Below are positions 37,004-38,284 of a DNA stretch of 64,000 nt, piece after piece. The stretch covers positions 39,122,001 to 39,186,000 of the forward strand of contig OX597832.1 in assembly GCA_951406725.2 (NCBI GenBank). The letters run 5' to 3'. The notes beneath the pieces are model-generated. The model did not search any database. It was not told where the DNA came from and saw only the letters and a list, made by a program, of their open reading frames with translations. Numbering within the stretch: the stretch's first letter is position 1; every line of letters starts with the position of its first letter. The stretch is from Octopus vulgaris. Its lineage: Eukaryota. A program made the position numbers and the translations under genes.

Positions 37004-37040
37004 TCTGGTATGTATGTATATAATATACTACTTGATCGAC

Positions 37041-37083
37041 AGCTACAGACGCGTTTCGGGGTATTGCCCCTTTTCAATGTAGC
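37041..37083 (-). ncRNA. Minimal type I hammerhead ribozyme, U3-A8 core variant (antisense twin)
   Basis: Reverse complement: GCTACA-TTGAAAA-GGGG CAATA CCCC-GAAA-CGCG-TC-TGTAGC. Confidence 0.75.
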
Positions 37084-37344
37084 GTAGTCAGACCAGTAGG
37101 TGTCGCTTCCGACAATCTCTGTTCGAAGGTTTTATTTACCTAGTTTCAGTGGAATACATCCACTTGTTTTCAATAATAGAAATATTAAAATTACTAAGTC
37201 TCTCTAAAAGAGATCACGGCAGCGTTCCTGGAAAATAATAGTTATCGCCATATTAATATGGCATTCTTATAAAAATAAGAATAAAGCTGTCCGCTTATTA
37301 GCTTCGAACAGAGATTGTCGGAAGCGACACCTACTGGTCTGACT

Positions 37345-37388
37345 AGCTACATTGAAAAGGGGCAATACCCCGAAACGCGTCTGTAGCT
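37345..37388 (+). ncRNA. Minimal type I hammerhead ribozyme, U3-A8 core variant
   Basis: AGCTACA/TGTAGCT stem I (7 bp), core UUGAAAA, stem II GGGG/CCCC, GAAA, palindromic stem III ACGCGT, GUC cleavage triplet ending at 37381. Confidence 0.8.
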
Positions 37389-38284
37389 GTCGATCAAGTA
37401 GTGTGGAGCGACTGACCTCCCTTGTTCGAAGGTTATATGGATACAGTTTGTGTATCAAATAGCTAACTTAAGGCGATGGCCTCATGGAGCTAATAAGCGG
37501 ACAGCTTTATTCTTATTTTTATAAGAATGCCATATTAGTATGGCGATAACTATTATATATATATATATATATATATATACATACATACATACATACATAC
37601 ATATACATGCATTTTTTTATATAATTTTCATCTGTCTTGCCCGCTTAATTGTTCTGGTGTTCACTACATTCTTTGTAGTTTGATCGTTGGTGATCTATTT
37701 CTAGCATACGGCCGACTACCTAGCGGTCTTGCGCTTTGAATATACACATGTATTAGAATTTTCTCTGACTTTTCAGATTTTTGTATGCTAGGCTACTGGT
37801 TTTAAATTAATATTAATTTATCTCCCTCATTATTTAAATATATACATATAAATATAAACTTTGCTTGTCCAATACATCAAGCCAGATTCGAAACAGAAAT
37901 ACATAAGTATTAAAAACTAAGCAATTGAAGAGGTCCTTACCCACCGAGCCACCAACAAATTCGCCAAATTGCGTCATCTTTCTTTTTAGTAATCCTAAAT
38001 AAAGCGAACGTTAGAACTAATCAGAAATCGATATTCTGTTACAGTCTTAGTGATCTAGATATGGTAGTGCTTCCATGAAAGACTTCTTTGCATCTGCAAG
38101 AACTTTTAAGTTGTTTACAAACCACGAATAATGATTCGCAGAAACTTAAGTGGTAGGAATAGAAGATATATCTTAATATAATAAAAGTGTGTTGCAGTAA
38201 TTTATATAATATAATATTACGCAATAAAATGAAAGTAATGTAGGCAATTATATACGTATTTCATATATGATATATAGGATATGT

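Follow-up and report, generated by a model that had tools for sequence, protein, structure and literature searches.

Head-to-head arms of a likely non-autonomous retrozyme with a U3-A8 hammerhead core in a TA microsatellite of Octopus vulgaris

The analysed window is a 64,000-nt stretch of the Octopus vulgaris genome (contig OX597832.1 of the assembly GCA_951406725.2, positions 39,122,001 to 39,186,000), which comprises 2.8 Gb and is rich in microsatellites. Within this window, two pairs of inverted repeats are interleaved in the order A-B-A'-B'. Segment A (37027-37128) is identical to the reverse complement of A' (37302-37402) at 101 of 102 positions, with one 1-nt gap, and segment B (37235-37303) matches the reverse complement of B' (37488-37556) at 68 of 69 positions. 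Alignment thus confirmed the description given in the original prediction, i.e., A and A' differing by a 1-nt indel, B and B' by one mismatch, and the order of the four segments. The presence of a UUGAAAA core in both A and A', claimed there as well, was also found when the motifs were read in the two copies, each of which contains TTGAAAA-GGGG CAATA CCCC-GAAA-CGCG-TC, with stem II formed by GGGG/CCCC. The 1-nt gap corresponds to the helix I bulge of the plus-strand motif in A', where a deletion private to this locus (1 of 160 distinct contexts) was found.

Judged by its sequence, the locus combines two fragments, placed head-to-head, of a tandem repeat with a 362-nt unit, whose positions are numbered here from the first base 3' of the predicted cut (Table 1). 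The left arm, composed of B, a 106-nt segment D and A, is 97.8% identical to a natural unit, and the right arm, composed of A', an 85-nt segment C and B', is 98.4% identical to it and ends at the first 3' site of the family (S1) in (TA)n. The arms differ from each other by one private indel and one substitution. In the 362-nt unit the circular order of the segments, mapped on tandem loci, is A'-C-B'-D, and the interleaved arrangement arises because two differently truncated arms of this circularly permuted unit share only A and B; there is no tandem at this locus itself. A target-site duplication is unreadable in the (TA)n flanks, both here and at other loci of the family.

Table 1. Features of the two-armed insertion, its surroundings and the candidate mobilising element (window positions unless a locus is named; S1 and S2, the two 3' end sites of the family)
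Feature	Position	Strand	Remarks
Left arm of insertion	37027..37303	-	277 nt of the 362-nt unit, from unit 107 through the ribozyme to 21
Right arm	37302..37556	+	about 255 nt, from unit ~280 through the ribozyme to 174
Head-to-head junction	37302..37303	.	2-nt overlap (CT) common to both arms
62-nt 'tail' between the S1 and S2 end sites	37173..37234	-	here internal to the left arm
(TA)n/(TACA)n microsatellite hosting the insertion	37557..37607	.	same flank at most arms of the family
Older neighbouring element, different family	36665..37024	.	head-to-head, one long-ended and one short-ended arm
Type I hammerhead motif	37332..37400	+	core TTGAAAA 37352-37358 (U3, A8)
Helix I of plus-strand motif	37346-37351/37382-37387	+	with added extension
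Helix II of plus-strand motif	37359-37371	+	followed by GAAA and palindromic CGCG
Predicted cut, plus-strand motif	37381/37382	+	after UC
Second hammerhead motif	37029..37098	-	family-type sequence; core 37077-37071; predicted cut 37048/37047
Young intact Neptune-like Penelope-like element (PLE)	L213:3239-5581 (G000:C5:1038700-1046700)		15 similar loci; period ~4.7 kb

The motifs show a Watson-Crick 3-8 pair, GAAA, UC (UH) at the cut and covariation in helix I, as expected of type I hammerheads. They had been proposed to be minimal type I hammerheads; the type stood and the minimal form did not, as minimal hammerheads are described with a helix II of 7-8 bp, a helix I of 4-5 bp and an extra base after position 9, between 9 and 10.1 (PMC4209133), and here helix II has 4 bp, proximal helix I has 6 bp plus an extension, and the extra base is missing. 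From the reading of the motif, its shape is that of a canonical animal type I hammerhead, with a 4-bp helix II, a long covarying helix I extension and a palindromic helix III. Since helix III of a monomer is predicted to close a 2-nt loop, cleavage as a dimer is likely (cf. PMC4209133, PMC7229834, PMC6765202), in line with what had been suggested for this locus.

A genome search with a pattern left free at positions 3, 7 and 8 gave 1243 matches, i.e., copies keeping the rest of the hammerhead pattern, of which 1238 carried U3-A8, two C3-A8, three U3-G8 and none C3-G8; position 7 was A, C, T or G. The same U3-A8 pair was present in 33 of 34 matches of an older sister subfamily (about 77% identical, with CTAG in helix III). 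U3-A8 is a fixed inherited core variant of the family, and the view of the original prediction that it is compensatory rather than a sign of decay is well founded; a family made up mostly of CUGANGA copies with U3 and A8 varying independently, named there as the contrary outcome, was not seen (five exceptions). The exact 36-mer suggested for the search had just 85 matches in the genome, probably because helix I differs in many copies. In an alignment of 10 hand-picked copies across subfamilies, six helix I pairs were changed on both sides and 96.9% of helix I cells were paired, compared with 27-46% in slid controls, figures to be read with the provisos that relatedness inflates the shuffle test and that the structure was drawn from the very sequences tested. 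Helix II is invariant and therefore uninformative in this respect. Such covariation of helix I is to be expected where a ribozyme is maintained, and suggests that the motif may be active.

Neither U3-A8 cores nor opposite-strand hammerhead pairs are new. Natural U3-A8 covariation, with in vitro activity ascribed to an earlier study, is mentioned in PMC3088659 (Perreault 2011), and about 1,300 U3-A8 motifs of Schistosoma, as well as opposite-strand hammerhead pairs 100-700 bp apart, are reported in PMC4209133 (Cervera and de la Pena 2014). The claim that searches requiring CUGANGA would miss the motif agrees with the U3-A8 core of the family and with an Rfam scan of 34000-41000, which returned no hammerhead match at E<=5, the only hits being microsatellite-driven miRNA noise under gathering scores. 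On the minus strand of L265 near 9583, just left of the window, a hammerhead-like motif shows the ordinary CTGATGA core together with a long helix II; the genome may thus hold C3-G8 motifs too.

Using A' as a query, 43 near-identical matches were obtained from 1889 candidates (40 scored), several of them 360-362 nt apart. Natural tandems of the family have a period of 360-365 nt and form arrays of up to 5.5 units, and a 31-mer of the 362-nt unit had 2738 exact matches in the genome. The unit is thus a tandem repeat within 150-450 bp carrying one type I hammerhead; its GC content is 40%, and it is non-coding (the longest ATG frame, found in the 5.5-unit array, has 64 aa), with no reverse transcriptase (RT) or GIY-YIG frame such as an autonomous endonuclease-bearing (EN+) PLE would have. 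With these features, the family is likely a non-autonomous animal non-LTR retrozyme. The predicted 362-nt circle is 65% paired. Among 15 arrays, differences between tandem units were private, with 48 of 50 variable columns confined to one locus, which fits copying from a circle and fits a homogeneous source array as well. On contig 1, 87 motifs formed 59 loci, 39 of them with a single motif, 10 with tandem motifs and 10 with motifs on opposite strands; all loci of the last kind were head-to-head, with varied spacing. In the main texts searched, with few subscription papers among them, neither a description of the family nor a count of the use of one end site per arm, presented below, was found; supplementary species lists could hold the family.

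To describe the insertion pattern, an unbiased sample of 47 loci was drawn from the first 100 of the 2738 matches of the 31-mer, chosen by a 3'-region pattern regardless of inversion (a terminal-arm pattern intended to widen the sample had only four matches). Two arms were present in 35 of these loci and a single arm in 12. Arms of the family end in (TA)n at S1 (unit ~174) or S2 (~236), 62 nt apart, both sites ending with CTATTAT, and their 5' ends are scattered. One S1 and one S2 end were found in 57 of the 58 two-armed loci with both ends canonical (p = 4e-16 vs 50%), i.e., in 28/28 of the unbiased and 29/30 of the hammerhead-selected loci; seven unbiased and three hammerhead-selected loci, the window locus among the ten, were set aside for one non-canonical end. 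A second young subfamily (e.g., L152:1423-2183; 364 nt, 324/362 identical, with C at core position 7) obeys the same two-site rule. The family therefore shows inverted 5'-truncated arms, a one-end tail and a microsatellite target, as PLE-mobilised copies do, with the left end of the window locus being non-canonical. The alternative offered in the original prediction, a recent Penelope-type inverted insertion, gains support from the prevalence of two-armed loci, the fixed (TA)n ends and the use of one site per arm.

The two arms of one locus agreed at 210 of 213 diagnostic sites, 119.8 being expected (34 two-armed loci), and their divergence was 1.0%, likewise that of adjacent tandem units, compared with 3.1% between loci. 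Arm lengths were uncorrelated (rho -0.02). In the 27 loci compared for containment (one fragmented locus was dropped), one arm lay within the other in 12, neither contained the other in 15, and in five the arms were disjoint. The junctions of the 35 two-armed loci comprised 21 overlaps of 1-10 nt, four blunt joints and 10 with a gap or insert. Reading through the cut site, 17 of 54 arms were longer than one unit, and the template was therefore likely circular or uncleaved. Truncations near the cut were counted by hand in the first 100 rows of a 224-row list. After removal of 34 rows representing indels or subfamilies, 66 truncations were left, with 37 ends in the 13 nt that follow the cut and 29 in the 34 nt that precede it (p 1e-6), a difference confounded by microhomology and helix stalling. 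Among 81 arms of the unbiased sample, three ended at unit 1-13, three at 328-362 and 12 at 38-45, a 5'-truncation hotspot beside a TTCGAA palindrome and the 10-bp helix closing the ribozyme rod. RT may halt at this hotspot, or a transcript may begin there. Identical insertions were also repeated 1-9 kb apart in microsatellite-rich DNA (L036; L133/L135; L239/L240), representing local or assembly duplicates.

The left arm of the window locus does not follow the end rule. Its 3' end lies at unit 21, where the rule predicts ~236, i.e., about 215 nt before S2, and a few bases separate the start of the retrozyme from the short end that is natural to the neighbouring two-armed element. Aberrant priming and a local deletion, with ~215 nt never made or lost, both fit this short arm. 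A single deletion removing the end of the neighbour together with the end of the left arm was rejected, as the ends of six of the neighbour's 14 relatives fall at much the same position. The family of the neighbour (36665-37024 and 37613-37858; 1557 candidates) likewise has head-to-head arms, which terminate in (TA)n and whose long and short ends are separated by ~100-140 nt. A search of these arms for a hammerhead was negative, and the family may be a further PLE-mobilised one and not a MITE. Further repeats were recorded in the window: an older retrozyme relative with helix III CTAG and a damaged core (28686-28935, minus strand), an older two-armed relative that lacks a ribozyme and ends once at S1 and once at S2 (8777-9029), and partial tandems of an abundant repeat with a period of ~184 nt (32876-33219, 44337-44568, 45624-45861 and 62683-63311). 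Elsewhere in the genome, an intact LINE with frames of 515 aa and 1140 aa (L037:1536-6503, minus strand) adjoins a retrozyme copy.

We consider it highly probable that the locus is one retrozyme copy, inserted as two head-to-head arms into a TA microsatellite, likely by a Neptune-type PLE priming reverse transcription from both ends of a break. Tandem loci would be transcribed and their hammerheads would cleave as dimers, releasing monomers or circles; the PLE enzyme would cut both strands in (TA)n, S1 and S2 of a circular or multimeric RNA would each be primed by one of the two DNA ends, and the two truncated cDNAs would be joined at their tips through microhomology. It is the fixed S1 and S2 ends, the shared haplotype of the arms and the non-nested arms that together suggest two independent primings, one per DNA end. 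The haplotype common to both arms could instead stem from gene conversion, or from sources being active one at a time, and the non-canonical left end of the window locus itself speaks against the proposed mechanism. As for the enzyme, a PLE protein was reported to cut and extend both strands of AT-rich DNA in vitro, priming without homology, with start sites alike on both strands; two internal RNA start sites define the tail, the RNA is mainly uncleaved, and a dimer is predicted (PMC11167929). The lack of homology and of a strand difference in that report speaks against the proposed mechanism; in the octopus family, both sites have TAT-like ends that match the target, and their use differs by arm.

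An intact PLE was found in the octopus genome. It has a 781-aa open frame with RT and, at its C-terminus, GIY-YIG, preceded by an apparent upstream frame at L213 and the similar loci, and the domain order, together with the linker CGRPNCGIC (assigned after PMC8557442; CX2-5CxxC in the Neptune clade), suggests a Neptune-type element. The hammerhead of L213 and the similar loci is very rich in AU and carries U3-A8, position 17 being U or A, and hammerhead-like motifs of PLEs, taken from 50 partly overlapping GIY-YIG stretches, carried the core TTGATAA in 44 of 44 cases, with CATG in helix III; this core is common to the intact PLE and the older retrozyme subfamily. One of these stretches, L196, contains a separate retrozyme copy. 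A 28-mer from the end of the intact PLE had 800 matches, and its copies stop in (TA)n at two end sites separated by ~36 nt, of which the second also includes CTATTAT. One site per arm was used in all nine head-to-head loci, picked as pairs by position and strand. Against the rule stand 25 unpaired ends of the unbiased list, all S1 within the 1.5 kb viewed, an S2 copy with no visible second arm (L214) and an S1/S2 pair standing tail-to-tail (L263). No meaningful blastn similarity was found between the retrozyme unit and the surroundings of the PLE frames (50 GIY-YIG stretches, the best of 6136 candidates), the two sharing only the core and the CTATTAT end motif rather than homologous terminal repeats. 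The partnership is therefore suggested by shared habits, and another PLE family could be the mobiliser instead. Animal retrozymes have been argued to derive from PLE terminal repeats in a preprint (10.64898/2026.07.22.740005).

A different reading, put forward in the original prediction, sees in the locus a self-cleavage switch, where B/B' pairing releases the ribozyme from its antisense. One of its premises is correct: a transcript of either strand carries one sense ribozyme plus its own antisense, with which it is predicted to form a 101-bp duplex. On the minus strand, whose ribozyme motif is intact, B'/B could, from the sequence order, pair before the ribozyme is made and trap the antisense in a ~185-nt loop, so that a kinetic window could exist there. 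In the plus-strand transcript the antisense precedes the ribozyme, the predicted fold is the A:A' duplex, and the ribozyme copy has its private deletion. The expected competition between B/B' and A/A' did not find support, as the A:A' duplex is predicted at -203.8 kcal/mol and B:B' at -105 to -109 kcal/mol, a gap of ~95 kcal/mol; in the 541-nt region, the fold of -285 kcal/mol (-127 +/- 6.5 for shuffles, z = -24, 0/100 shuffles as stable) also forms via A:A'. With one sense ribozyme per strand there is no partner in cis for a motif whose monomeric helix III has a 2-nt loop. The arrangement is one of many, with junctions scattered across loci, and hence shows neither the conservation nor the two folds of similar stability that mark a conformational switch. 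The 13 window frames tested had no Pfam host-gene match apart from two under threshold, which in an intron-rich genome is a weak test. Taken together, these results make a switch very unlikely; the locus is more likely an inert product, and in the transcript of either strand the single ribozyme is predicted to be hidden within the duplex. It is still less credible that the inversion is an artefact of repeat assembly. Among the public short-read contigs listed the exact junction is unbridged, yet the arms are told apart by their private indel and substitution, the head-to-head form is the commonest one in the family and obeys the end rule, and contigs of a public run show many other left-arm/right-arm joints alike. 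Contigs of two runs that may be RNA cover family sequence, being uninformative on strand, ends and circles.

The second arm could also have been made through fold-back, by self-priming of the first cDNA or of an antisense template, the model proposed for inverted arms in PMC3846280, or by a later inversion at the DNA level. The haplotype common to both arms would fit, as would the 12 of 27 loci with one arm inside the other, the junctions that are palindromic or carry short fold-back inserts, and the 5' ends beside TTCGAA. A copy of the first cDNA must, however, be nested, and this does not hold for the 15 of 27 loci with non-nested arms, five of them without common sequence, nor for the window locus, where C is present in the right arm only and D in the left arm only. 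Moreover, each outer end occupies its own fixed RNA site in (TA)n, and the arm lengths show no correlation. We therefore regard this origin as improbable, cDNA fold-back being largely refuted, as far as the loci compared indicate, by the disjoint arms.

The proposed retrozyme insertion by two primings has several parallels. In L1 twin priming, two primers on the RNA give an inverted arm joined by microhomology, the second primer being placed at variable internal sites. The retrozyme resembles it in the two primers, the inverted arm and the microhomology joint, and differs in that its primers lie at fixed sites and its arms usually overlap in sequence. Another parallel is offered by the EN+ PLEs (Neptune, Penelope/Poseidon and Naiad), for which inverted 5'-truncated copies, a 30-40 bp one-end tail and a (TA)n bias are described (PMC8557442, PMC3846280). 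Head-to-head arms, the one-end tail, the microsatellite target and microhomology junctions are common to them and the octopus family, whereas the retrozyme unit has no reading frame and its tail has 62 nt; furthermore, the tail of EN+ PLEs is called 'optionally' or 'often' one-ended in these papers, in contrast to 57/58 in the retrozyme family.

Like the animal non-LTR retrozymes of PMC7229834 (Cervera and de la Pena 2020; 350-390 bp in mussel, 330/350 bp in axolotl), the octopus family has a non-coding tandem unit, a canonical type I hammerhead whose palindromic helix III is weak, copies numbering in the thousands, PLEs alongside it in the genome and a highly self-paired circle, which is here predicted only. 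It differs from them in the U3-A8 core throughout and in its insertions in (TA)n, most of which consist of two head-to-head arms, with the 3' ends fixed at two sites, a form for which no description was found in the available text of that paper. With the PLE hammerheads of Schistosoma (PMC4209133) it shares U3-A8, the palindromic helix III and the opposite-strand spacing (298 nt here). The Schistosoma motifs are heterogeneous minimal hammerheads, whereas the octopus family is canonical-type, nearly invariant and young, and its core is common to the intact PLEs sampled.

The locus itself is ordinary, and the value of the finding lies in the near-strict two-site rule of its family, which, together with the non-nested arms, argues against cDNA fold-back. 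The origin of the tandem and inverted structures of PLEs in microsatellites is named as unresolved in PMC8557442. Descriptors requiring CUGANGA miss more than 1,200 hammerheads of this family, and for this reason the counts of animal retrozymes may be too low. A further idea, for and against which the scales seem to us evenly balanced, is that two-ended asymmetric priming is obligate for inverted Penelope-type insertions: a dimeric RT-endonuclease would direct one DNA end to S1 and its counterpart to S2 of a single circular or multimeric template, the tail being the footprint of the second active site, and this machine would be common to the U3-A8 lineage of the genome, which comprises the intact PLE of Neptune type and three or more subfamilies of retrozymes (helix III CATG, CTAG and CGCG). 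If this is true, an animal retrozyme would be tied to its mobilising PLE by mechanism, and the 362-nt unit would provide a substrate for reconstitution.
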